From positions 51,841-115,840 of IMG/VR virus record IMGVR_UViG_3300041809_000571: DNA of 64,000 nucleotides; one strand, 5' to 3'. Shown here in pieces: positions 8,524 to 52,619 of this stretch. Made by a program: the position numbers and the translations under genes. The notes under the pieces were generated by a model. It searched no databases. It was not told the DNA's origin and worked only from the letters and a program-made list of their open reading frames with translations. Every line of letters begins with the position of its first letter. Within the stretch, counting starts at the first letter, position 1. Source of the DNA: a virus.

Positions 8524-9645
8524 ATGGAACTCGAAAAGACATCGCACAGTGAGCAGTACATGGATTACTCCGGGGGTAAGGAAAATGCCCCCACGCTGAC
8601 CGTTATGGTCGGCCCGGCTGGCTCGGGCAAGTCCACCCACGCCCGCAGTCTTGTCAATTGGGCAGCGGGAGCGACCGTCCGGGTAAACCGGGACACCATC
8701 CGTGCCATGCTCTACTGTGATTCCCCTTGGAACCACTCGAAGGAAGATGTGGTCCGCAAGTATGAGGAAGAGGGCATCCGTATGTTCCTCGCCATGGGAC
8801 TCAACGTCATCGTGGATGACACCAACTGCGTGTCCCGTACCCGGCAAAAGCTGGAAGAGATTGCCCGTGGCGCTCGGGTAAAGTTCTGCCTGCACGTCAT
8901 GAACGTGGACAAGGAAGAGTGTAAGCGGCGGAACGCCCTACGCACCGGCAAAGAATGCGTGCCCGAGGAAGCCATCGACCAACAGTTCAAGCGGCTGCGG
9001 GAAACAACCGTCCGCCCGGCTGGCTACGGTCTGGATGAGACCAATCGGGCAGTGGACGACTGGAATGAGCTTATCGCCGCTGGTATGGGGCGGAGCGAGT
9101 TCCGGGAGCGCCTCCCCGGCGCACCGTGGGTGTTCTGCGACGTTGACGGAACCCTCGCAGAGAACTTAGGGGAACGCAATCAGTTTGACGAAAGCAAGGT
9201 TCTTTTGGACGCTTGCCGGGAGCCGGTAGCGGCATGGGTCCGGGCGCTTTATCCGACCCACAACATCGCTATCGTCAGCGGTCGGCACGACACCTGCTGC
9301 AACGATACCTGTGACTGGCTTGAAATGTACAAGGTTCCTTTTGACTTGATTCTGATGCGTCCGGCGACGAGTTATGTCTCCGACCACATTGTCAAGCAGA
9401 ACATCTTAGATGCCTTGCTCAAAGTCATCGACAAGGGTCGCATCGCTTTCTCCATTGATGACCGCCCGAAGGTGGTCAATCAGGTGTGGAGGAATGCTAA
9501 AATCAAGGTCTATCCGGTCGGCGGCATGGTCGCCGCACCCGGCGAGCAGGCTACGGCGCACACCGCCTCCTGCACCTTTGACCTTGCCAATGTCAAGAAG
9601 GGTTTCCGTCGCTGCCCGTCTTGCGGGGCACTGGAGGATTTCTGA
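8524..9645 (+). CDS. pnk: polynucleotide 5'-kinase / 3'-phosphatase (T4 Pnk-like)
   Basis: N-terminal P-loop GPAGSGKST; C-terminal HAD phosphatase VFCDVDGTLA plus downstream SGR and DD motifs; domain order as T4 PseT. Confidence 0.75.
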   Translation: MELEKTSHSEQYMDYSGGKENAPTLTVMVGPAGSGKSTHARSLVNWAAGATVRVNRDTIRAMLYCDSPWNHSKEDVVRKYEEEGIRMFLAMGLNVIVDDTNCVSRTRQKLEEIARGARVKFCLHVMNVDKEECKRRNALRTGKECVPEEAIDQQFKRLRETTVRPAGYGLDETNRAVDDWNELIAAGMGRSEFRERLPGAPWVFCDVDGTLAENLGERNQFDESKVLLDACREPVAAWVRALYPTHNIAIVSGRHDTCCNDTCDWLEMYKVPFDLILMRPATSYVSDHIVKQNILDALLKVIDKGRIAFSIDDRPKVVNQVWRNAKIKVYPVGGMVAAPGEQATAHTASCTFDLANVKKGFRRCPSCGALEDF

Positions 9646-10034
9646 TGAGCCTCAATCATATTTCAATGTCACAGGCTTTGGGCGTCTGGTCGGAACTGGA
9701 AGCAGCCTATTACGGCAAGAACGGTTTCGGCAGGGATACGGCGGAAATTTACGCCTATCGCTTGCAGGAGTTCTGCCCCACCGCCGCTTACGCTTCTGGT
9801 AGTCCCTCATCTTCCATAGGGGTGGAAGCGCAGAGAGAAGCCGCCACGAGGGCCGGGAGAGCCTTACACGAGCTTATCCGACTCTTTCAGGCACATCACA
9901 ACTGCCGGGTGGTCGTGATGGATTACCGGGAGGATGGTAACGGGGAACACCCGGATATCCTTCTGGAGGGATTTGACCACCGGGTCAGCATCAAAGTCAT
10001 GCGGGACGAAAAACCACTGGAGATGAAGTCATGA
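9645..10034 (+). CDS. hypothetical protein
   Basis: ATG overlaps pnk stop; 129 aa. Confidence 0.4.
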   Translation: MSLNHISMSQALGVWSELEAAYYGKNGFGRDTAEIYAYRLQEFCPTAAYASGSPSSSIGVEAQREAATRAGRALHELIRLFQAHHNCRVVVMDYREDGNGEHPDILLEGFDHRVSIKVMRDEKPLEMKS

Positions 10035-11302
10035 AGCTGGAAAAGCTGCTGAATATTGAGAAGCTGAACGAACAGGTAAGGGATGGCTACATCTCTGTCC
10101 GGGCACACCCCAAGCTGCCCCTGCGCATCTACAACTACTCCAGCCAATGCACCTTCGAGAACAAGTGGTCCTTGGAGTCGTGCATCTGCCGGGGCCTCAT
10201 CGTGGACTCCAATGACAACGTTGTGTCTCGTCCCATCGCCAAGTTCTTCAACTTGGGACAGACCGGACCCCTGCTGGTCAGGGATTGGTTCCTCCGGGAT
10301 GAAAGGGGAGAGAACAAGGGTGTCGTCAAGGACCAGACCATTGACCCGGCGTACCTTCTCGAATGTGCCCGGCTGTTTAAGAATCCCATTACCATCACCC
10401 GCAAGTTAGACGGGTGGGCGGGAATCTCGTGGCACTATGAGGGCATCTACGGAGTTGCCAGCCGGGGTTCTTTTGATTCACCGGGGGCGCAGTATGCCAC
10501 GGAGAAGGTGCAGAAGTTCGTCAAGTACGGGGCGTTCGCCGACTTTCTCCCCGAGGATACCACCCTGTTCTTCGAGATTATCTCCAAGGTCACCAAGGTG
10601 GTGGTCCCCTACAACTTCGAGGGGCTGGTGCTTATCGCCGCCATTGCCAACGAGACCGGGGAGGAATTGGAATATCCCGAGCTTGAGGCTTTCCACAAGC
10701 AGTTGAACAGCTATGCCAAGGACCGGGACTGGTGCCGGTTGGTGCCGAAGTTTGACATGTCGGTGGAAGAGTGCATGGCGGACAAAGACATGACGGAGGA
10801 GGGCTATGTCACCGCCGTCCACCGGCCCCATCTGCCGCCTGTCCGGGCGAAAATCAAGCTGGCAGAGTACTGCCGTCTGCACCGCATTGTGACTGGTGTA
10901 ACACCGCAGAAAATCTGGAATGAGCTTTCCGACCCCATGTCACCGTGGATTTCCCACAACTCCAAGAAGGATTGGACCACGGGTGAAATCAAGGTGGACA
11001 TGTCCGTCCCCAAGGAATTCGGGGAGTGGGTCTACCAGTGGCAGGTGAAGATAACCGGCGTTTTCCACGAGAAGTTGGTTCGAGCCGTGGAGGCGGAGAG
11101 CCATCTGACAAAACTGGCAACCGACTCGCCTGCTGAAAGGAAGGCACAGGTGGAGTGGCTCCGGGCAAACTTTGCTGATGTTTCCAAGGCGGCAATGTTG
11201 CTGCACCAAGGCAAGATTGTGGACGCCTACAACGAACTGTGGATTCAGGTCCGTCCTTTTGGTCGGGAAGAGTATTACTACCAAGACGGAAAAGGAGAGT
11301 GA
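10031..11302 (+). CDS. ATP-dependent RNA ligase (covalent nucleotidyltransferase superfamily)
   Basis: Motif I RKLDGW (KxDG) plus downstream ligase-like segments; adjacent to Pnk as in phage tRNA-repair modules. Confidence 0.6.
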   Translation: MKLEKLLNIEKLNEQVRDGYISVRAHPKLPLRIYNYSSQCTFENKWSLESCICRGLIVDSNDNVVSRPIAKFFNLGQTGPLLVRDWFLRDERGENKGVVKDQTIDPAYLLECARLFKNPITITRKLDGWAGISWHYEGIYGVASRGSFDSPGAQYATEKVQKFVKYGAFADFLPEDTTLFFEIISKVTKVVVPYNFEGLVLIAAIANETGEELEYPELEAFHKQLNSYAKDRDWCRLVPKFDMSVEECMADKDMTEEGYVTAVHRPHLPPVRAKIKLAEYCRLHRIVTGVTPQKIWNELSDPMSPWISHNSKKDWTTGEIKVDMSVPKEFGEWVYQWQVKITGVFHEKLVRAVEAESHLTKLATDSPAERKAQVEWLRANFADVSKAAMLLHQGKIVDAYNELWIQVRPFGREEYYYQDGKGE

Positions 11303-20317: not shown

Positions 20318-20532
20318 TGGACTGGCAAGAAATTGACAGGGTGCGGGTCCCGAAGGATTATGGAGAATTCCTTGGGCTTGCGACCTTGCGCAGATACAAC
20401 CACCCGCTGATTATCGCCCGGTTTGCCAGATGCAATGCGGTGGTGGGGCAACCGTACTTGGATACTTGGAAAGATATCGCCGTCATTGAATACGCCATTG
20501 CTCATGCTAAACCGGAAAACTTCTCGGAATAG
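20317..20532 (+). CDS. hypothetical protein
   Basis: 71-aa ORF. Confidence 0.35.
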   Translation: MDWQEIDRVRVPKDYGEFLGLATLRRYNHPLIIARFARCNAVVGQPYLDTWKDIAVIEYAIAHAKPENFSE

Positions 20533-20545
20533 AGTAATAATCCTT

Positions 20546-21550
20546 ATGCTGACTGTACCGGTTGATATCAGTTATGTGAATTTTGTCTGGTCTACGGACT
20601 GGCACCTGAGTGCCTACCCACCGGGTCAACGTGGTGATGACTACGAATCGGCCATTTTGGAGAAGCTTGACTTTATCCGGGACGTAACAGAGAAGGTCCA
20701 CGGTGTAGCCCTGTGTGGTGGGGATGTATTCCATGTGAAGAAAGCTCACCACCCTGCTAACAGTCTGTCTCTCCTTGTGCGGACGCTGCGGACATTGCGG
20801 AAGTTCCCCATGGGCCGGGTGTATGGGGCAGTAGGCAATCACGACTTGGCATGGGGCGAGCGGATGGATTCGCTCTCGGGTCAGCCCCTCGGCCTTCTTA
20901 TCGCTTCCGGGGCCTATGCGGACCTGACCGAAGAGTGCCTGATGGTGAGTTCGCAGTTTGCTCCCTTGAAAGTGCAGGTACAGTCCTTTCCCTATGACCA
21001 CGGTCAGGAGACGCTGCACAGGATAAAGGCTTCCCACCGGCATGGGGATGCCAACTACTTTGTGGGCATCGTTCATGCCTATGGTCAGCCGGGCGGACCC
21101 AGTGATTACTTTGGTGAGCGAGTCATCGGCTATGATGAAGTTGCCGACTCAGATTTTGATTTCTTGCTTTGGGGTCATGACCACGGGCGGCAGGAAACCA
21201 AGAAGGTGGGTAACACCACCCATGTGCATTTGGGGAGTCTCGCACGAGCGGCACTGGACAGTGACCAAGCGGAGCGTCTCGTGTCTGTAGCCGTGCTGTC
21301 ATTCTCCGAGCAGGGGCCGAAGTACAAGGAAATCGCCCTGCCCGTGAAGCCATTGGCGGAGGCGTTCGTTACCGCCGACCGGGAAGTCCGTCATATCAAC
21401 AAGTCGGAGGAAGTCAAACAGTTCTTGACGCAGATGGAGGTAGCCGTGGGTGGTGTGGAAACATCCGACCCCGGCGAGGTTCTCAGGGAGCTTTGCCCCA
21501 AGGAAGACATTCGGTTGCTAATGTTGGTAAAGGAGCTATGCGGCCTATGA
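20546..21550 (+). CDS. Mre11/SbcD-like metallophosphoesterase nuclease
   Basis: DWHL, GGDVFH, GNHD, GHDH motifs in Mre11 order; start trimmed to ATG 20546 after previous stop. Confidence 0.6.
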   Translation: MLTVPVDISYVNFVWSTDWHLSAYPPGQRGDDYESAILEKLDFIRDVTEKVHGVALCGGDVFHVKKAHHPANSLSLLVRTLRTLRKFPMGRVYGAVGNHDLAWGERMDSLSGQPLGLLIASGAYADLTEECLMVSSQFAPLKVQVQSFPYDHGQETLHRIKASHRHGDANYFVGIVHAYGQPGGPSDYFGERVIGYDEVADSDFDFLLWGHDHGRQETKKVGNTTHVHLGSLARAALDSDQAERLVSVAVLSFSEQGPKYKEIALPVKPLAEAFVTADREVRHINKSEEVKQFLTQMEVAVGGVETSDPGEVLRELCPKEDIRLLMLVKELCGL

Positions 21551-22572: not shown

Positions 22573-22892
22573 ACAGCGAGAAGGTCATGAAGGTAGTCTC
22601 CACGGTCTTGGTAATCCTCGTTCTTTTGCTCGTCATGGTGACGTACCAATACAGCGAGTATGTTGACCAGTGCAAGCAAGAGGCTGAACATGCCGAGCTT
22701 CTCTACCTCCGGGCGTGGAAGAGCGCTCACCCCGATACTATTCGGATGGAGACACAGGGAGAGTGCATACAGGATGTGTTTAAGACGTTGCGCCCATTCT
22801 TGCTGCCACCATTTGGCACGGCGGGGCCGAGATTCCCCGTTGTTCCACCGTCCGAAGATATGAGACCAAGGAAAGGTACTAACGTAACGTGA
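22569..22892 (+). CDS. membrane-anchored hypothetical protein
   Basis: N-terminal hydrophobic helix VVSTVLVILVLLLVMV. Confidence 0.4.
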   Translation: MNSEKVMKVVSTVLVILVLLLVMVTYQYSEYVDQCKQEAEHAELLYLRAWKSAHPDTIRMETQGECIQDVFKTLRPFLLPPFGTAGPRFPVVPPSEDMRPRKGTNVT

Positions 22893-23503
22893 TGCTCCTT
22901 AATGGACAACCAAACCTGTGGTTCACCGCCGACTGGCATTTGGGGCACCGGTACTTCACCACCAAAAAGCGACCCTTCTCCAGCGTGGAGGAAATGAACG
23001 AGGCGTACATTACCAACCACAACGCCGTGGTGCGGAAGGGTGACATCGTCTACGTTCTCGGAGACCTCTACCTTCAGATGAAACTGGAGCAGTGCGTGGA
23101 AATCCAGAAGCGGCTCAATGGAAACTTCTACGTTATACAGGGAAACCATGACGGTATTGCCGTTCAGATGATGAAGAAGCATAACTCTTTCGTCTGGATA
23201 CGCCAGCTTGAGGAAATCAAGGTTGGTCAGCCGTGGTTTGATGACACGAACAAGAAGATGATTACGCTCTGTCACTATGCCATGCGCACGTGGAGGAATT
23301 CTTGCTATAACAGCTATCATCTTTATGGGCATTCTCACGGAATGCTCCCTGATGAGCCACACCTTCTCTCCATAGATGTGGGGGTTGATTGCAATAACTT
23401 CTACCCCATCTCTATCGAACAAGTTATACAGAGAATGGAGTCCAAGATGCCCGCTAGGTTGGCCTACTTAGAGAGCTTAAAGAATTCTGGACGGGTGGAA
23501 TAG
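22889..23503 (+). CDS. calcineurin-like metallophosphoesterase
   Basis: TADWHLGH, VLGDLY, GNHD, HSHG motifs. Confidence 0.6.
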   Translation: MMLLNGQPNLWFTADWHLGHRYFTTKKRPFSSVEEMNEAYITNHNAVVRKGDIVYVLGDLYLQMKLEQCVEIQKRLNGNFYVIQGNHDGIAVQMMKKHNSFVWIRQLEEIKVGQPWFDDTNKKMITLCHYAMRTWRNSCYNSYHLYGHSHGMLPDEPHLLSIDVGVDCNNFYPISIEQVIQRMESKMPARLAYLESLKNSGRVE

Positions 23504-26381: not shown

Positions 26382-27322
26382 CGGAGCATTTTGCCAAGGT
26401 GGTTGATGCTCTCTTTGAGAGCGAGGAGACCCTCAAGGCAAAGTTCAACGAGTTGTTTCCCGGCTTGGAGTTCGACCGTACTGACCACTGGGGCGGAATC
26501 ATGTACCGGGTCTTCCGGGATTCTTGGCTGGAGGCCGGTCCCGAGGTTAAGGCGGAGCCAACCGGCTATGACCGGAGTGCGGTCCTCAAGAAGCTCACCA
26601 CCCTGCTGGATTACAACCTCTTCACACAGGTGATGCTCAATCTGCAATCCTACCTCGGTATGGCGTATCAAGCTTTGAACGCTGAAAAAGACCTCAAGAC
26701 CATGGAAGAATGGTGGAAGAACAACAAGCGTAGCCCCTTCATGCCGGGGTCGAAAATGGTGAAACTTTCCGCCAACATGACGACGGAGGATGAGAAGTTC
26801 AATCAGGACCTCAGCACCATCCGGTCATTGAAAATCATCGCCAACTTTACCCCCAACCTATCATGGCGGGTCAGCCCCAAGGGCAGCACCCCGGCGCTGG
26901 TAGACAGCAACAACGTTAGCAGCCTTGGTATCGGGGCGGACAGGTATCTTAAGGTGATGCCCGGCCTGCGGGCCTCTTACGTCTTTTGGGAGCCGGGCGG
27001 CGGGCCGACCATGGCAACCATTCCCCCGGCATCTTCCGACCACATTACGTTCCAAGCGGAGGGCATCCCGTACTTGTTCCGTTCCAAGTCGGGCGGAGAA
27101 ATCCTCAATCAAGTTTTGTTCTCCCGCCGTCTGGCCTTCGGCATTTTCTGTGCTCACGATGTGGCGAACGAGACGTGCATCATCGTCCCGAGAATGAGTT
27201 CCATCCTCGTGGTGCATGACGACAACAGTTACAACCTGCGCCATGCCATCGAACCCTATTTGGATGGTGGTGTTATTCAGTTGGCAGAGGGGTCAAGAAG
27301 TGACCCCTCCCCAAAGGCTTAA
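26351..27322 (+). CDS. hypothetical protein
   Basis: 323-aa ORF. Confidence 0.45.
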   Translation: MDMDEIYQKVAEHFAKVVDALFESEETLKAKFNELFPGLEFDRTDHWGGIMYRVFRDSWLEAGPEVKAEPTGYDRSAVLKKLTTLLDYNLFTQVMLNLQSYLGMAYQALNAEKDLKTMEEWWKNNKRSPFMPGSKMVKLSANMTTEDEKFNQDLSTIRSLKIIANFTPNLSWRVSPKGSTPALVDSNNVSSLGIGADRYLKVMPGLRASYVFWEPGGGPTMATIPPASSDHITFQAEGIPYLFRSKSGGEILNQVLFSRRLAFGIFCAHDVANETCIIVPRMSSILVVHDDNSYNLRHAIEPYLDGGVIQLAEGSRSDPSPKA

Positions 27323-40997: not shown

Positions 40998-41259
40998 AAA
41001 CAACGCCCTAGACATGGATACGTTGATTGACTTCGCCAAGACCTTGGCAAACTGGAAGGGGTTTTGCGTGCAAAGCGTCTCCGTCGCCAACCCCAAAGGA
41101 GTACAAGCCAAGCCTTGGGAGCTTAGCGGGATGCAGTGGGAATCCTTACAGACCTACCATCTGATAGAGGCACTACAGGTGTCCCTTTTTAATCACATGA
41201 AGATGGTGAGTGAGCTTCAACAATTCAAAGCGGTCAGGGGGAAGAAAAATGCTAAGTGA
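40984..41259 (+). CDS. hypothetical protein
   Basis: 91-aa ORF. Confidence 0.4.
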   Translation: MATRKNNALDMDTLIDFAKTLANWKGFCVQSVSVANPKGVQAKPWELSGMQWESLQTYHLIEALQVSLFNHMKMVSELQQFKAVRGKKNAK

Positions 41260-41512
41260 CACTGCCTTAGTTGTCATCTGTATCATCGCCATAAGCGGAT
41301 TTTTGTTCTTGGGTAGTACCCTCAGTCACCTGCTTAACTATCTTGAAGAGATACACCGGCAGGCGCATGAAACCGAGATGGCAAAACTCGGCCTGACTTA
41401 TAACGACGACCTAGAAAGGTGGGTGCCCTATGGGCAAGGCGAAGAACAGCCTGACAAGCCGAATGAAGGAGAACTACGAACTCCGGTGCCGCCACTGGCT
41501 CCCGAGGCGTAG
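41249..41512 (+). CDS. small membrane protein
   Basis: GGGGGAAG RBS; hydrophobic helix ALVVICIIAISGFLFLGS. Confidence 0.4.
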   Translation: MLSDTALVVICIIAISGFLFLGSTLSHLLNYLEEIHRQAHETEMAKLGLTYNDDLERWVPYGQGEEQPDKPNEGELRTPVPPLAPEA

Positions 41513-42200
41513 TTACGTCCTTATCCGAGTGGACGGCAGAAGCTTCCACACATGGACCAAGGGCCTAAACAAGCCCTATGACGTGGAAATGATGAAGTGC
41601 ATGGACACCGTGGCGTTCAAGCTCTTTGAAGAGATTCCGGGAGCGAAGTTCGGCTATGTCCAGTCGGATGAAGTCAGTCTGCTCATCACGGACTTTGACA
41701 AGATTGGTACCGAGGCGTGGTTCGACAACTGCCAGAACAAGCTGGAGAGCGTCTCCGCCTCCATCGCCACAATGGCTTTCAATCGGGAAGTCATTAGGTA
41801 TGCACGTGCAAATCTTGAAATGGATATCACTAAACTGGGGTCTAAAGCACCCGATGCCACGTTCGACAGCCGGGCGTGGACCATACCGGACTACGTGGAA
41901 GTGGAGAACTACTTCATCGACCGGCAGAAGGATGCCATCCGAAACTCCGTCACTATGCTGGCAAACTACTACGCCAGCCACAAGAGCCTGCTCAAAAAGA
42001 AGGTCAGTGACCGGCACGAGGTCATTCGGGCAGCGGGTGACGACTGGGAAAAACACCCCCTGCGTTTTCGCCGGGGCGCAGCGGTGTACCGAGTCGGAGG
42101 AATCAGTAACGGTGTAGCAATCGACCAAGACACCCCGGAATTCACCAAAGACAGGGGATACCTCAAGCGGCACATCCCCCGGCACTGGGCGGATGATTAG
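41430..42200 (+). CDS. Thg1-like protein (tRNA-His guanylyltransferase family, 3'-5' polymerase)
   Basis: YVLIRVDGRSFHTWTKGL and GYVQSDEVSLLI match Thg1 core motifs (vVRLDGrnFhrF / yGQSDEySFvf); start may be internal. Confidence 0.7.
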   Translation: MGKAKNSLTSRMKENYELRCRHWLPRRSYVLIRVDGRSFHTWTKGLNKPYDVEMMKCMDTVAFKLFEEIPGAKFGYVQSDEVSLLITDFDKIGTEAWFDNCQNKLESVSASIATMAFNREVIRYARANLEMDITKLGSKAPDATFDSRAWTIPDYVEVENYFIDRQKDAIRNSVTMLANYYASHKSLLKKKVSDRHEVIRAAGDDWEKHPLRFRRGAAVYRVGGISNGVAIDQDTPEFTKDRGYLKRHIPRHWADD

Positions 42201-42502
42201 GGCTTAGCCCGAAGGCTCGCCGCTTCTTGACGAAGCCGCTTTGCTGTGGCAGCATAGCGGGCTGCCGTGTTGGGAGCCATAAGGTTCTTAACAACGGGGC
42301 CTTTGCTAATGCTGGCGGCGGCTTGCTCGTATCCGGCTGCCTGAGAATCCAAGGCGTTGGCACGAGCAAGGTCCTTAGTGGTCGCTGCCCATAGCGGGGC
42401 GGACATCAGAAGTGTCATGGCGATAAATCGAACGATGGTCTTCATGGAAATCCTCCTGAGAGATTTGATGTAAAAAAAGACGCATCGCCATGACGGAACC
42501 AT
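42197..42502 (-). CDS. secreted small protein (Sec signal peptide)
   Basis: AGGAGG RBS; MKTIVRFIAMTLLMSAPLWA-ATT signal; Ala-rich mature region; isolated minus-strand gene. Confidence 0.55.
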   Translation of the reverse strand: MVPSWRCVFFYIKSLRRISMKTIVRFIAMTLLMSAPLWAATTKDLARANALDSQAAGYEQAAASISKGPVVKNLMAPNTAARYAATAKRLRQEAASLRAKP

Positions 42503-49397: not shown

Positions 49398-49706
49398 GGA
49401 CCCGTACAAGCGTTCAGGGCAGAGGTAGTCCGGCTGGAGAACGAGCTTATGTCAGCGAAGATACGGCTGGCGGAGGCGGAGTTGCGGTGTTGCCATGCGT
49501 GGAGTAAACCGGCGTATGACCCCATCATCCACGAAGCGTACCATATCGCTGGCGACCCGCCCGGCACCATGGGGGTTGACCGGCAGCTTCCCATGGATGT
49601 ACCCCGGCAGGAAATCCCCCGCTGGAAAAGAACTTGTAGCTCCTGCGGGATAACGGAGACAACGCAGCAAATCAGAGAGGATATCAAAAAGGTACCGGTG
49701 TTCTAA
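49398..49706 (+). CDS. hypothetical protein
   Basis: 102-aa ORF. Confidence 0.35.
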   Translation, partial: GPVQAFRAEVVRLENELMSAKIRLAEAELRCCHAWSKPAYDPIIHEAYHIAGDPPGTMGVDRQLPMDVPRQEIPRWKRTCSSCGITETTQQIREDIKKVPVF

Positions 49707-50644
49707 TGGAATTCTACGGAAAGCTCAAACAAGCGCTCGTGGAGATTGGGGAAGTTGACCCTAATAGCCTGATTCTCGCTTTTGCCTCGGGAAGCTGGCA
49801 GCATGGTGCCCGGATGGACGACAAGGCCGACCTTGACGTGTCCGGGGTGTTCGTGGGTCGCCCGGAGGAAGAACTCCAGCTTGACAACGAGAACCCTCGT
49901 AAAATGGGTCATGCGAGTGCTAGCACGGCAGGAGACAAGCGCAAGAACACCAAGGCGGACGTTGACATCAAAGCCTACTCTCTACGCCGCTGGGCGGGTC
50001 TGGCGCTTAAAGGCAACCCTTCGGCACTTTCGTTCCTGTTTGTCCCGGACAGCATCAAGGACATGTCTTTGGAGCCGAAGGCACGTTGGCCATGCCCCTA
50101 TGATGCGCAGCAGTGTGAGTATCCAAGCTGCATAAGCGACCATGAGGGTTACCGGGACAGCACGTGCGTGAGGCGTAACCGGGAGGCGCATACAAACACG
50201 GTGTGGGACACCGTGATTCTGCCCAACACCAATGACTTTCTGTCCGCCCGAGCGGCGAAAGCTTTCATCGGTCTGGCGGATAACCAGTTTCACCGGATGC
50301 TTGGAGAAGGCACGGGTAAACACGGGACCCGGAAAGCCGAGAAGGAAGAATACGGCTACGACCCCAAAGCGGCTATGCACATGATTATAGGCATTCAAGA
50401 GTGCCTTGAGCTTTTGCGGACCGGAAGGATGACTTTCCCCCGCCCGGAAAAGACCCTATTGCTTAACATCCGTACCGGAAAACTTGGTCTAAAAGGTGTA
50501 TTAGACCTATATGGGGTTTTGCGGGATGAAGTGCCCGAGGCGGAGAAGAACACCCCGCTTCCCCCGGAATGTGACCGGGGAAAGGTCAGCAAACTCGTTA
50601 CGGGGGCGATATTGCAGCATTGGAAAGAGAGGAAGTGGCTATGA
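49706..50644 (+). CDS. minimal nucleotidyltransferase (Pol-beta superfamily) protein
   Basis: FASGSWQHGARMDDKADLDV matches GS-x9-13-DxD NTase signature. Confidence 0.5.
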   Translation: MEFYGKLKQALVEIGEVDPNSLILAFASGSWQHGARMDDKADLDVSGVFVGRPEEELQLDNENPRKMGHASASTAGDKRKNTKADVDIKAYSLRRWAGLALKGNPSALSFLFVPDSIKDMSLEPKARWPCPYDAQQCEYPSCISDHEGYRDSTCVRRNREAHTNTVWDTVILPNTNDFLSARAAKAFIGLADNQFHRMLGEGTGKHGTRKAEKEEYGYDPKAAMHMIIGIQECLELLRTGRMTFPRPEKTLLLNIRTGKLGLKGVLDLYGVLRDEVPEAEKNTPLPPECDRGKVSKLVTGAILQHWKERKWL

Positions 50645-51102
50645 GGGCATCGGAAGCAAGGGCACTTGCCGAGACCAATGCCGAACGCATCGCTCGGAAG
50701 AAGGCGGAGGAGTCCGCCAAGCGCAAAATTCAGCGGGCGACTGCGTGGGAAAGAAGGCGGAAGGAATACTACGCCAAAACCCTCGAAAATATTAAGTGGC
50801 ATATCGACGCCTACATCAAAGACGGTGAAACAAAAATTGAAGACTACCGGCTATCCACGGAGAATGATAGTGATGGCCTCCTAGCCGGGGAACAGAAGTT
50901 TTTCAAAAACTTTGAGTTTGCCGTAGAACTAAAGAAAATCATCGCCAAGCTGCGCCGGGACGGCTACAAAGTAACGGTTAAAGCGGGGTCGGTACAGCAT
51001 GACGACAGTGCCGCTTACTTGAACAGCGGTGGTGAGTGCGGCTCCGAGACCCCTTACTACATGTATCACACTTGGCTGGAGATTTCGTGGGAGGGAAAAT
51101 GA
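50641..51102 (+). CDS. coiled-coil hypothetical protein
   Basis: ATG overlaps previous stop. Confidence 0.4.
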   Translation: MRASEARALAETNAERIARKKAEESAKRKIQRATAWERRRKEYYAKTLENIKWHIDAYIKDGETKIEDYRLSTENDSDGLLAGEQKFFKNFEFAVELKKIIAKLRRDGYKVTVKAGSVQHDDSAAYLNSGGECGSETPYYMYHTWLEISWEGK

Positions 51103-52619
51103 GAATCCTTAATGTCCGAATGGGACTGGCGACCAACTCCTCCAGCATCCACTCCATCATCCTCATGGCCCCGAAGCACTACCGGAAAGTCAGGACCGAC
51201 GAATACTATGACTTTGGGTGGAGTTTCTTCACCGCCGCCAACATTCGCTCCAAGACTAACTATCTTGCCTACATTCTGCGTGGAAATCTGAATGCCGCCA
51301 TTGGTGAGGAGAACGCCGCTGTCATCATCGACGCCCTCTTCGAGTCCAAGCACGGGGGAAGCTACTCCAAGGAGATTGAGGAGAACGGCTACGGCGTGGA
51401 CCACCAAAGCTTCATCGGTCTCCCCCGCAACTGGGATGGTCAAGGAATTAACCTTGACTTCTTCAAGGATTTCAAGGATTACATCGTTAACAACCCCGTC
51501 GCTATTCTCGGCGGTAACGACAACACCGACGAGTCGCACCCTCTACGGGGTGATGGAAAAAGTCTTGACCTTGGTATTTTGGAGGATGGTGAATATGGTA
51601 CCCTTGTGGCAAGAAAAGACCACTGCGGCAGGGATACTCATTGGGTCCTGTTCAACCGGCACAATGGCACCAAGGTTCGCCTGACCTTTGACCACTACCC
51701 CAATAAAAGGGGCACCAGCAATCCCATAGATGAGAAGACCTTTGCTGCCCGCAAGTTTATGTTGGGTCCGATTAAGCCTTTCAATAAGGCGGCGGCTCCC
51801 GAGCTTGTGGACATTAAAATCACCGACCATTGTACCATGGGGTGTGAGTATTGCTATCAGAGTAGCACGCCAGCCGGGCAGCACGCCGACTATGACAACA
51901 TCAATCGCCTTGCTTATGCCCTCGCCAGAATGCGGGTATTCGAGGTTGCCCTCGGCGGCGGCGAGCCAACAAAGCACCCCAAGTTCTTGGGGATTCTTCG
52001 CACCTTCCGTAATTATGGAGTCATCCCCAACTTCACCACTCGGGACCTGATGTGGATGTTCAACAAGAAAGATGCACAGGAGATTGTCAAGACCGCTGGT
52101 GAGTTCGCTTATTCCGTGACTACAGGAGCAGACGTAAAGCGCCTTGGCAGGGCCATTGAACGAGGCAAGTTCCGGGAGCTTCAACCGGAGAAGGAGTTCT
52201 CCGTCCAGTATGTCTTGAACACGGGCGGAAATCTCTACGATGTTTTAGAGGAAGCCCGCAAGAACGATTTCCGGGTTACCCTCCTCGGCTACAAGCGGGT
52301 GGGATTCGGGAAAGACTTCACCCCCATTCCCGAAGACTGGATGAAGGCGGTAGCCCAAGCCAGAAAAGAACGTAGTTGGGTTCATATCGGCGTGGACACC
52401 GCCATCATCAAAGAGCAGGGAGAACAAATCAAACGGGACCTGAACGTCAGCGAACTGCTCATGACCGCCGAAGAGGGCAAGTTCTCCATGTACATCAATG
52501 CCGTCAATAACACCATGGGTCCGTCCTCCTACTGCTCACCGGACGAGATGGAGCCGATAATCAGAGGGCAGGGTAAGACCACGGAGGATTACATCCGGGA
52601 GAGATTCATCCGATGGTAG
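51099..52619 (+). CDS. radical SAM enzyme with ~230-aa N-terminal extension
   Basis: ITDHCTMGCEYCY (CxxxCxxC) and VALGGGEPT glycine-rich SAM motif; GGGAGGG RBS. Confidence 0.6.
   Translation: MRILNVRMGLATNSSSIHSIILMAPKHYRKVRTDEYYDFGWSFFTAANIRSKTNYLAYILRGNLNAAIGEENAAVIIDALFESKHGGSYSKEIEENGYGVDHQSFIGLPRNWDGQGINLDFFKDFKDYIVNNPVAILGGNDNTDESHPLRGDGKSLDLGILEDGEYGTLVARKDHCGRDTHWVLFNRHNGTKVRLTFDHYPNKRGTSNPIDEKTFAARKFMLGPIKPFNKAAAPELVDIKITDHCTMGCEYCYQSSTPAGQHADYDNINRLAYALARMRVFEVALGGGEPTKHPKFLGILRTFRNYGVIPNFTTRDLMWMFNKKDAQEIVKTAGEFAYSVTTGADVKRLGRAIERGKFRELQPEKEFSVQYVLNTGGNLYDVLEEARKNDFRVTLLGYKRVGFGKDFTPIPEDWMKAVAQARKERSWVHIGVDTAIIKEQGEQIKRDLNVSELLMTAEEGKFSMYINAVNNTMGPSSYCSPDEMEPIIRGQGKTTEDYIRERFIRW

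Follow-up and report, generated by a model that had tools for sequence, protein, structure and literature searches.

Why should a phage whose tRNA-His gene already encodes the additional guanosine at position -1 (G-1) also carry a gene for a Thg1-like protein (TLP), a family filed in the databases as tRNA-His guanylyltransferases? The question is raised by a stretch of 64,000 nucleotides, hereafter the window, which spans positions 51,841 to 115,840 of IMG/VR virus record IMGVR_UViG_3300041809_000571, and in which the TLP gene lies at 41430-42200 on the plus strand, some distance upstream of the tRNA-His gene at 56371-56445. The DNA that carries the gene is a contig of 364,142 bp (ENA ERZ27249816, k141_1180871; a window position is the contig position minus 63,121), and the carrier is a huge (364 kb) uncultivated phage. 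The reading that we favour, with a probability of about 0.6, is that the TLP would perform templated repair of 5'-shortened tRNAs, as one part of a phage complement for RNA repair and the maintenance of translation. An initial annotation of the window had named the gene and suggested a role of this kind; our conclusion from the analysis below is that the annotation is correct and its interpretation sound, but that the interpretation was previously published and that the gene is common among phages.

Active site, type and reading frame of the Thg1-like protein

The 256-residue translation matches the Pfam family PF04446 (Thg1) with E=3e-26 and 92.3 bits (gathering cutoff, 29.2) over profile positions 3-130 of 130, and it matches PHROG 4717 ('tRNA-His guanylyltransferase') with E=3e-65. 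The Pfam scan returned no match to the Thg1C domain, and a search of NCBIfam gave no meaningful match. Among proteins of the PDB the best sequence match is BtTLP (4kgk; E=4.5e-41, 144.5 bits, residues 7-249). An AlphaFold2 model of the protein has a pLDDT of 89.8 and a pTM of 0.86, and when this model was compared with the PDB by Foldseek, all 32 matches at E<=1e-3 were Thg1 or TLP structures, with 4kgm_B at the top (E=1e-21, TMq 0.82, TMt 0.91, rmsd 2.0-2.2 Å). Membership of the family and the fold are thus established, and the alternative that the initial annotation had allowed for, an unrelated fold, was nowhere among the matches.

The two motifs from which the catalytic core had been recognised, IRVDGRSFHTW and GYVQSDEVS, are present at residues 32-42 and 75-83 respectively. 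Alignment places all three active-site carboxylates in them: D35, D80 and E81 correspond to D30, D75 and E76 of BtTLP (D29, D76 and E77 of hTHG1), whose roles, together with those of the nucleotide-binding and activation residues, have been described (PMC3701042). The agreement extends to the nucleotidyl-transfer site, where R33, K104, R148, R21, E17 and R165 correspond to BtTLP R28, K99, R131, R16, E12 and R147, to the activation site (K48 and S79, corresponding to K43 and S74), and to H40, N172 and M176 (H35, N154 and M158). Over the 17 functional positions compared there is a single substitution, and it is a conservative one: the base-stacking L49 of BtTLP is replaced by Met54. The active site is intact, and it is under purifying conservation: across 35 homologues the functional positions are invariant or nearly so, D80 and E81 being invariant and D35 nearly so, and the alignment contains 32 invariant columns in all.

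It is difficult to reconcile these observations with the idea that we are looking at the remnant of a gene, decaying or without catalytic function, or at an open reading frame (ORF) that exists by chance. Nothing specific speaks for that idea, beyond the fact that an uncalled ORF extends over the gene's first 83 nt. Against it stand the full-length match to BtTLP with every functional residue intact, the invariant columns among the homologues, the confident model, and a 100% identical copy of the gene on a 2-kb contig from a second sample. We find the idea scarcely credible, and consider it almost certain that the gene encodes a member of the Thg1/TLP family, predicted to be catalytically competent.

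The start of the gene also appears to be correctly placed. Independent metagenome gene callers, run on the parent contig, called the ORF identically, with an ATG at 41430. Direct reading of the sequence shows a Shine-Dalgarno-like element, AAAGGTGGG, at 41415-41423 on the plus strand, 6 nt 5' of this ATG, and the stretch 'KSKN-LT-RMK' at the N-terminus, which precedes the next methionine (Met12), is kept in homologues. The start at 41430 is therefore supported both by the spacing of AAAGGTGGG and by the conservation of the N-terminal stretch.

Which type of enzyme this is bears directly on what it might do. Its PDB bit scores fall from 144.5 for BtTLP to 40.5 for the Thg1 of Candida, 35.8 for the TLP of M. 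acetivorans and 22.7 for human Thg1; beyond BtTLP, the E-values are 2.5e-9 for Candida Thg1, 6.7e-8 for the Methanosarcina protein and 7e-4 for the human one. The segment that aligns with the eukaryotic HINNLYN motif reads AIRNSVTM (residues 169-176), with Ile170 at the position of the histidine that stacks on the anticodon and Met176, as M158 in BtTLP, at that of the activation-site asparagine (Asn161 in the Sc enzyme); the roles of these two residues in the eukaryotic enzymes have been reported (PMC6471195, PMC3701042). By sequence, then, the phage protein is of the bacterial TLP type and not a eukaryotic Thg1 specific for tRNA-His, and by analogy the activity to be expected of it would be addition templated by Watson-Crick pairing and independent of the tRNA-His anticodon.

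The tRNA-His and the acceptor stems of the phage tRNAs

The tRNA-His(GUG) gene was found by ARAGORN and confirmed by Rfam (69.8 bits), and its acceptor stem was read directly. The tRNA proper occupies 56372-56445 on the plus strand with its G-1 at 56371, in the arrangement t-G(-1)-GTGACTG...CAGTCAC-C73-CCA, so that, just as the initial annotation had stated, a genomically encoded G-1 can pair with C73. The presence of a TLP gene beside such a tRNA-His had been presented as something of a surprise, which our survey does not bear out. G-1 is encoded in 8/9 of the tRNA-His genes that lie within 10 kb of a viral TLP gene in IMG/VR, and the tRNA-His of XacN1, a TLP-positive jumbo phage, likewise encodes a G-1:C73 pair. 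Rao et al. posed the problem of the prokaryotic TLPs around precisely this encoded G-1 of bacteria and archaea (PMC3061083), and a passage of PMC4338351 describes the bacterial arrangement as one in which the encoded G-1 is incorporated co-transcriptionally. A TLP together with an encoded G-1 is the usual arrangement for prokaryotic and viral TLPs.

Because G-1 is already encoded here, in 8/9 of the neighbouring viral genes and in XacN1, the maturation of tRNA-His is not what the TLP would mainly be needed for. The stronger statement, that addition of G-1 is not needed at all, is reasonable as far as the encoded nucleotide goes, but it leaves out a possible backup role. The TLP might supply G-1, opposite C73, to tRNA-His molecules of the phage or the host that have lost it and so keep them chargeable by HisRS, for example where RNase P cuts the densely packed phage precursors at +1. 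For the addition of G-1 opposite C73, BtTLP has a kcat/KM of 5500 M-1 s-1, equal to that of yeast Thg1 (PMC3061083, Table 1), the phage tRNA-His has the correct template in its C73, removal of an encoded G-1 by RNase P has been reported in plant mitochondria (PMC3061083), and such a function is what the database names of the family presume. However, the encoded G-1 can pair with C73 as it does in the bacteria just mentioned, G-1 is likewise encoded in 8/9 of the viral tRNA-His genes near TLPs and in XacN1, the phage TLP lacks the anticodon-reading histidine of HINNLYN that gives Thg1 its specificity for tRNA-His, and BtTLP has a 5- to 160-fold preference for 5'-truncated tRNAs compared with addition at -1 (PMC3061083). 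Since G-1 is encoded, the anticodon motif is missing and the family prefers truncated substrates, we regard a backup role on tRNA-His as secondary at most, and as the principal function of the gene it is unlikely.

Three observations on tRNA-His genes may be recorded at this point. A terminator-like hairpin at 56334-56367 (CCCACCG, 9 nt, CGGTGGG, followed by TTTTTTT) ends about 5 nt ahead of the G-1 in the window, which leaves almost no 5' leader. Viral tRNA-His genes near TLPs share the upstream context ATG|G(+1). Finally, some phage tRNA-His genes do not encode G-1, since two cultured phages, Stenotrophomonas phage Bhz51 (5796-5872) and Escherichia phage EcS1 (4455-4530), have a T at -1 despite C73.

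The remaining tRNAs of the window are also potential substrates of the TLP. They fall into two arrays on the plus strand, both found by ARAGORN and Rfam. The first, at 28884-30397, holds tRNA-Tyr, six tRNA-Leu, three tRNA-Ser and one aberrant tRNA-like gene, and the second, at 56372-63517, holds tRNAs for His, Arg, Asn, Lys, Phe, Met, Pro, Gln, Trp and again Arg, with small ORFs and an HNH endonuclease (60646-61200; Pfam HNH) lying between them. For the counts of acceptor-stem pairs we used the 33 tRNAs of the window that Rfam confirms, and for comparison between phages the ARAGORN calls, of which there are 34 in the window.

Acceptor stems bear on another explanation, in which the phage would practise tRNA 5' editing in the manner of DdiTLP3, the TLP rebuilding position 1 (to 3) after a nuclease has trimmed 5' ends that do not form Watson-Crick pairs. 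What favours it is an excess of G1.U72 wobble pairs, which occur in 12/33 tRNAs (all 6 tRNA-Arg and 3/4 tRNA-Lys among them), with 0-4 wobbles at each of the other stem positions, together with the A1xA72 mismatch of a tRNA-Met. By ARAGORN, G1.U72 is found in 12/34 (35%) of the window tRNAs, compared with 10/76 in four unrelated cultured phage arrays and 23/170 at 19 TLP-positive IMG/VR loci, an excess of ∼2.6-fold over the 13-14% seen elsewhere (Fisher p=0.01 and 0.005, respectively). However, pairs 2:71 and 3:70 are Watson-Crick in 33/33 tRNAs, and the sole mismatch at 1:72 is in an initiator-like tRNA-Met, where a mismatch at that pair is expected; G.U pairs are stable and require no editing; and TLP-positive arrays elsewhere are not enriched, with G1.U72 in only 2/23 tRNAs of XacN1. 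Acceptor mismatches at positions 1-3 are likewise few at the TLP-positive IMG/VR loci (6/170). Because the second and third pairs are always Watson-Crick and the only mismatch at 1:72 is initiator-like, editing would be left without substrates in the window, and Rao et al. dismissed it for prokaryotic TLPs on the same grounds (PMC3061083). We consider it very improbable.

A proposed linkage between G1.U72 and the TLP was accordingly dropped, G.U pairs making up 13-14% at 1:72 with or without a TLP gene. Many TLP-positive IMG/VR loci have no G1.U72 at all, and three arrays (L121, L169 and L114) are as rich in it as the window. The richness of the window is regarded as a quirk of its lineage, for which evasion of a nuclease or enzyme that reads the acceptor stem is one possibility.

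There are two more speculative proposals, which even taken together we would call a long shot. The first is that the phage TLP rewrites position 1 of its own tRNAs, turning the G1.U72 of tRNA-Arg and tRNA-Lys and the A1xA72 of tRNA-Met into A1-U72 or U1-A72. If true, tRNA 5' editing would for the first time be seen beyond mitochondria, and for the first time in a virus. The second, less exotic, is that the TLP, acting after the polynucleotide kinase-phosphatase (Pnkp) described below, protects against a putative defence nuclease of the host that would cut the acceptor stem in its 5' strand.

Several features of the arrays deserve a separate record. CCA is encoded in 32/33 confirmed tRNAs, and neighbouring genes are separated by as little as 1 nt (59815/59817). 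The tRNA-Met(CAU) at 58028-58101, which looks initiator-like, combines A1xA72 with A73 and has CTT in place of an encoded CCA, while a further 'tRNA-Met' at 58108-58187 has an oversized D-region and a badly paired acceptor stem and is not called by Rfam. Two tRNA-like genes, at 29824-29894 and 58939-59012, have by ARAGORN a 6-nt anticodon loop with a 2-nt 'anticodon', and both score below the Rfam gathering score for tRNA; the one in the Leu array has neither a long variable arm nor CCA, and the other possesses CCA and a normal acceptor stem. For both, an identity as pseudogene, decoy or frameshift-type tRNA is conceivable. An identical pair of tRNA-Lys(UUU) genes lies at 57409-57484 and 57575-57650, 166 bp apart, and the isoacceptors Pro-CGG, Gln-CUG, Trp, Phe, Lys-CUU and Arg-CCU are duplicated. 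A distant BLAST search with the tRNA array returned generic tRNA similarity only, and no related array.

RNA-repair genes and the proposed function

The initial annotation grouped the TLP with a Pnk, an RNA ligase and a 'minimal' nucleotidyltransferase, as a suggested broader toolkit for tRNA end repair and maturation. All three are genuine, and all three are encoded in the same genome, on the plus strand of the window. The first, at 8524-9645, is a bifunctional Pnkp (Pfam HAD_PNKP, E=3.7e-24, and AAA_33, E=1e-23; PHROG 505, E=2.5e-63), whose best match in the PDB is Pnkp1 (4xrp, E=3.3e-26), followed by T4 Pnk (1ltq, E=2e-10); Pnkp1 is part of the bacterial Pnkp-Rnl-Hen1 repair system. The second, at 10031-11302, is an RNA ligase of the T4 Rnl1 type (Pfam RNA_lig_T4_1, E=5.9e-11; PHROG 562, E=3.2e-45), with a weak match to the structure of T4 Rnl1 (E∼3e-4). 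The third, at 49706-50644, is a nucleotidyltransferase of the RlaP family (RNA-ligase-associated Pol-beta; Pfam PF10127, E=5.7e-12, in the N-terminal domain; PHROG 388, E=8e-37), for which the PDB holds no sequence match. RlaP enzymes add one or two nucleotides to damaged 3' ends of RNA (PMC12776372). The co-occurrence of a Pnk, an ATP-grasp RNA ligase and RlaP with the TLP in this genome is thus established.

Support for the functional link comes from other genomes. A relative whose TLP is 51% identical (L005) has a contiguous cassette of Pnkp, TLP and RNA ligase, and another at 59% identity (L093) keeps the same spacing between TLP and RlaP as the window. We also surveyed the neighbours of 86 other TLP loci, mostly cellular, by clustering of flanking ORFs and Pfam, and those of 80 viral loci from IMG/VR. 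In the first set the only recurrent direct neighbours, all confirmed by Pfam, were Rnl-type ligases (6), Pnk-type P-loop kinases (4) and RtcB (3), 13/86 in all. Of the viral loci, 11/80 have an RNA ligase within 10 kb and 4/80 have one within 1 kb, and 23/80 have tRNA genes within 10 kb. An association of Thg1 with Pnk and RNA ligase was described by Anantharaman, Iyer and Aravind in 2010 (PMC2904730), and our survey reproduces it, but the association itself is a partial one. A single-query tblastn search with the Pnkp, Rnl1 and RlaP of the window against 88 TLP loci yielded almost nothing, and was judged too insensitive.

These ligases suggest a further alternative, in which the substrates are not tRNAs. 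The TLP might extend or adenylylate, via 5'-App, the 5'-phosphate of broken rRNA, mRNA or small RNAs, after which Rnl1 would seal the ends, or a templated fill-in might precede ligation; after all, no gene type directly flanks TLP genes more often than RNA ligases do. Against this, Rnl1-type ligases adenylylate 5' ends themselves, all the characterised activities of TLPs require a base-paired template 3' strand of the kind found in the acceptor stem, and the genome is heavy in tRNAs, with at least 33 in the window. The proposal does have published roots: Anantharaman et al. suggested that a 5'-App end made by Thg1 could promote ligation (PMC2904730), and, according to a review, the range of RNAs recognised by TLPs is wider than that of Thg1 (PMC6471195). 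We consider it doubtful, and slightly more so than the maintenance of G-1.

Templated repair of tRNA 5' ends is the explanation that we favour, and the steps of its mechanism are derived by homology to BtTLP. The TLP would bind a tRNA whose acceptor stem lacks one or a few nucleotides from its 5' strand, and would activate the 5'-monophosphate of this tRNA with ATP or GTP by way of K48 and S79. With a pair of Mg2+ ions coordinated by D35 and D80, the 3'-OH of an incoming NTP, itself held by R33, K104 and R148, would then be able to attack the activated 5' end. Each nucleotide would be selected by its Watson-Crick match to the 3' strand (position 72, then 71 and so on), and addition would end once the stem is complete. 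Pnkp may convert a 5'-OH to a 5'-phosphate and remove a 3'-phosphate, which would supply the 5'-phosphate needed by either the TLP or the ligase. With the Rnl1 ligase, RlaP as the nucleotidyltransferase for 3' ends and more than 33 phage tRNAs as its other partners, the TLP could in this way restore tRNAs of host and phage after damage to their 5' ends by nucleases or by imprecise processing. Its enzymatic activity, its substrate in vivo and the source of the damage are all things that we infer.

The biochemistry of BtTLP is consistent with such a role. Apart from its preference for truncated tRNAs, it adds all four nucleotides when they are templated, and its substrates extend beyond tRNA-His (PMC3061083). 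A kinetic preference for 5'-truncated tRNAs and strict Watson-Crick templating are known only from BtTLP, MaTLP and a small number of other enzymes. Nor is the idea new for viruses, as copies of Thg1 were proposed in 2010, for phage 201phi2-1, to serve in RNA repair against host defences (PMC2904730), and Thg1 was listed in 2021 with RlaP, the CCA-adding enzyme, Pnk and RNA ligases in the repair complement of jumbo phages (PMC7824862).

Several points weigh against this reading. Firstly, the repair genes of the window are dispersed and form no operon: upstream, Pnkp and Rnl1 are 30-33 kb away from the TLP gene, and downstream, RlaP is 7.5 kb away. Since they are not adjacent to it, the functional link between the TLP and repair rests on comparison with other genomes. 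Secondly, a recognisable repair gene is found near only ∼15% of the sampled TLP loci, and the neighbours of the gene in the cultured phages BcepSaruman, G and RAS14 are uninformative. Thirdly, a literature search found no activity, substrate, phenotype or experimental study for any phage TLP, and found no defence system or nuclease that trims the 5' ends of tRNAs, the systems encountered targeting anticodon loops or arms. Because no description of a 5'-end-truncating nuclease was found, the damage that the TLP would repair is hypothetical.

How widespread the gene is affects the weight to be given to this one copy. Homologues of the TLP occur in 161 deposited phage records, many already annotated as 'tRNA-His guanylyltransferase', and the carriers include phage G, 201phi2-1, XacN1, RsoM2USA, the Lak phages, CcrColossus and many Bacillus myoviruses; in IMG/VR at least 582 viral contigs have a relative. 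The clade to which the window copy belongs consists of metagenomic sequences only, at 47-87% identity, several of them on contigs of 100-465 kb. The best identity among cellular proteins is ∼46% over the full length (in Armatimonadota, Bacteroidota, actinomycetes and some archaeal metagenome-assembled genomes), and among deposited phage copies it does not exceed 42%. A megablast search with 8 kb around the TLP gene found no match among 50,697 deposited phages. Context was therefore taken from metagenomes, as the phage has no close sequenced relative.

What the physiological substrate of a prokaryotic TLP might be has been a question since 2010: repair of 5'-truncated tRNAs takes place in vitro, and it is the source of such tRNAs in vivo that is at issue. 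Phage TLPs that occur beside Pnk, RNA ligases, RlaP and dozens of tRNAs suggest that damage to tRNA 5' ends is a hazard of infection, possibly one posed by an unrecognised defence nuclease. The present locus adds one more well-preserved TLP, from a distinct clade of huge phages, and leaves the overall picture unchanged. Its practical value lies in a clean annotation and a candidate sequence for biochemistry, although many cultured phages carry the same gene and would be equally tractable or better.

The immediate surroundings of the gene add little to its interpretation. It is the last plus-strand gene ahead of a convergent minus-strand gene at 42197-42502, and no convincing sigma-70 promoter or intrinsic terminator bounding its transcription unit was found on the plus strand. 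Its neighbours are small hypothetical genes, set in a block concerned with nucleotide metabolism (a nucleoside deoxyribosyltransferase, NUDIX, ThyX, a dCMP deaminase and a gene resembling dGTP diphosphohydrolases), and the same layout is kept in relatives at 53-61% identity. The uncalled ORF that overlaps the start of the gene lies at 41249-41512 on the plus strand; it has 87 codons, a predicted N-terminal transmembrane helix and a Shine-Dalgarno-like element of its own, GGGGGA, and it fills the 170-nt gap 5' of the TLP gene. Small ORFs found directly 5' of the TLP gene in relatives often encode membrane proteins, none of them homologous to this one.

Further afield, the minus strand next to the first tRNA array (30761-33202) encodes an 813-residue protein with the shoulder domain of the Major Vault Protein (PF11978, E=1.4e-21) and a vault repeat (PF17795, E=1.5e-10), which has no match in PHROG; a protein of this kind is unusual in a phage genome. 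The window also encodes two radical-SAM proteins (2152-2901 and 51036-52619), three calcineurin-like phosphoesterases (1152-1847, 20423-21550 and 22889-23503) and a cysteine protease of the papain family (27319-28260, minus strand), and the product of 34045-35016 gives a weak, below-cutoff match to the ART-PolyVal ADP-ribosyltransferases.

Comparison with known systems

The closest characterised system is BtTLP (PDB 4KGK and 4KGM; Rao 2011, PMC3061083; Hyde 2013, PMC3701042), with which the phage protein shares 41% identity over 229 aligned residues. The two are of the same length class (256 residues in the phage, 245 in BtTLP) and have in common the fold, the carboxylates, the arginines and lysine that bind the NTP, the lysine and serine of the activation site, and the TLP-specific methionine in place of the eukaryotic asparagine; both also come from genomes that encode G-1. 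They differ in that the phage copy is not cellular, has an insertion of 11 residues after the long helix (∼residues 128-138), and has a shorter beta-hairpin near residue 222. The eukaryotic Thg1 enzymes of yeast, human and Candida (PDB 3OTB, 3WBZ) share the palm-domain fold and the two-metal 3'-5' chemistry, but in structural alignments they are only 17-22% identical to the phage TLP, in which the HINNLYN motif is absent.

Within phages, the proteins of PHROG 4717 (Bacillus phage G gp378, the 'putative Thg1' of Pseudomonas phage 201phi2-1, and those of XacN1 and Lak) belong to the same family and come mostly from large or jumbo phages rich in tRNAs, where the TLP gene usually sits amid small hypothetical genes, as it does here. 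The window TLP differs from them in being at most 42% identical and in belonging to a separate metagenomic clade. The editing of mitochondrial tRNA 5' ends by Dictyostelium DdiTLP3 (PMC5041481, PMC6471195) offers the same predicted reaction, the rebuilding of the 5' strand on many tRNAs, but it requires encoded mismatches at tRNA positions 1-3, of which the window tRNAs have essentially none.

Lastly, the window resembles the healing and sealing system of T4 Pnk and Rnl1, and the repair complement of jumbo phages (Iyer 2021, PMC7824862; Burroughs and Aravind 2016), in having Pnkp, an Rnl1-type ligase, RlaP and tRNA arrays. T4 itself has no TLP, and its pathway mends nicks in the anticodon loop rather than losses from the 5' end. 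The combination of Pnk, ligase, RlaP and tRNAs is that of the group 2/3 jumbo phages, among which Thg1 is a sporadic extra (PMC7824862).

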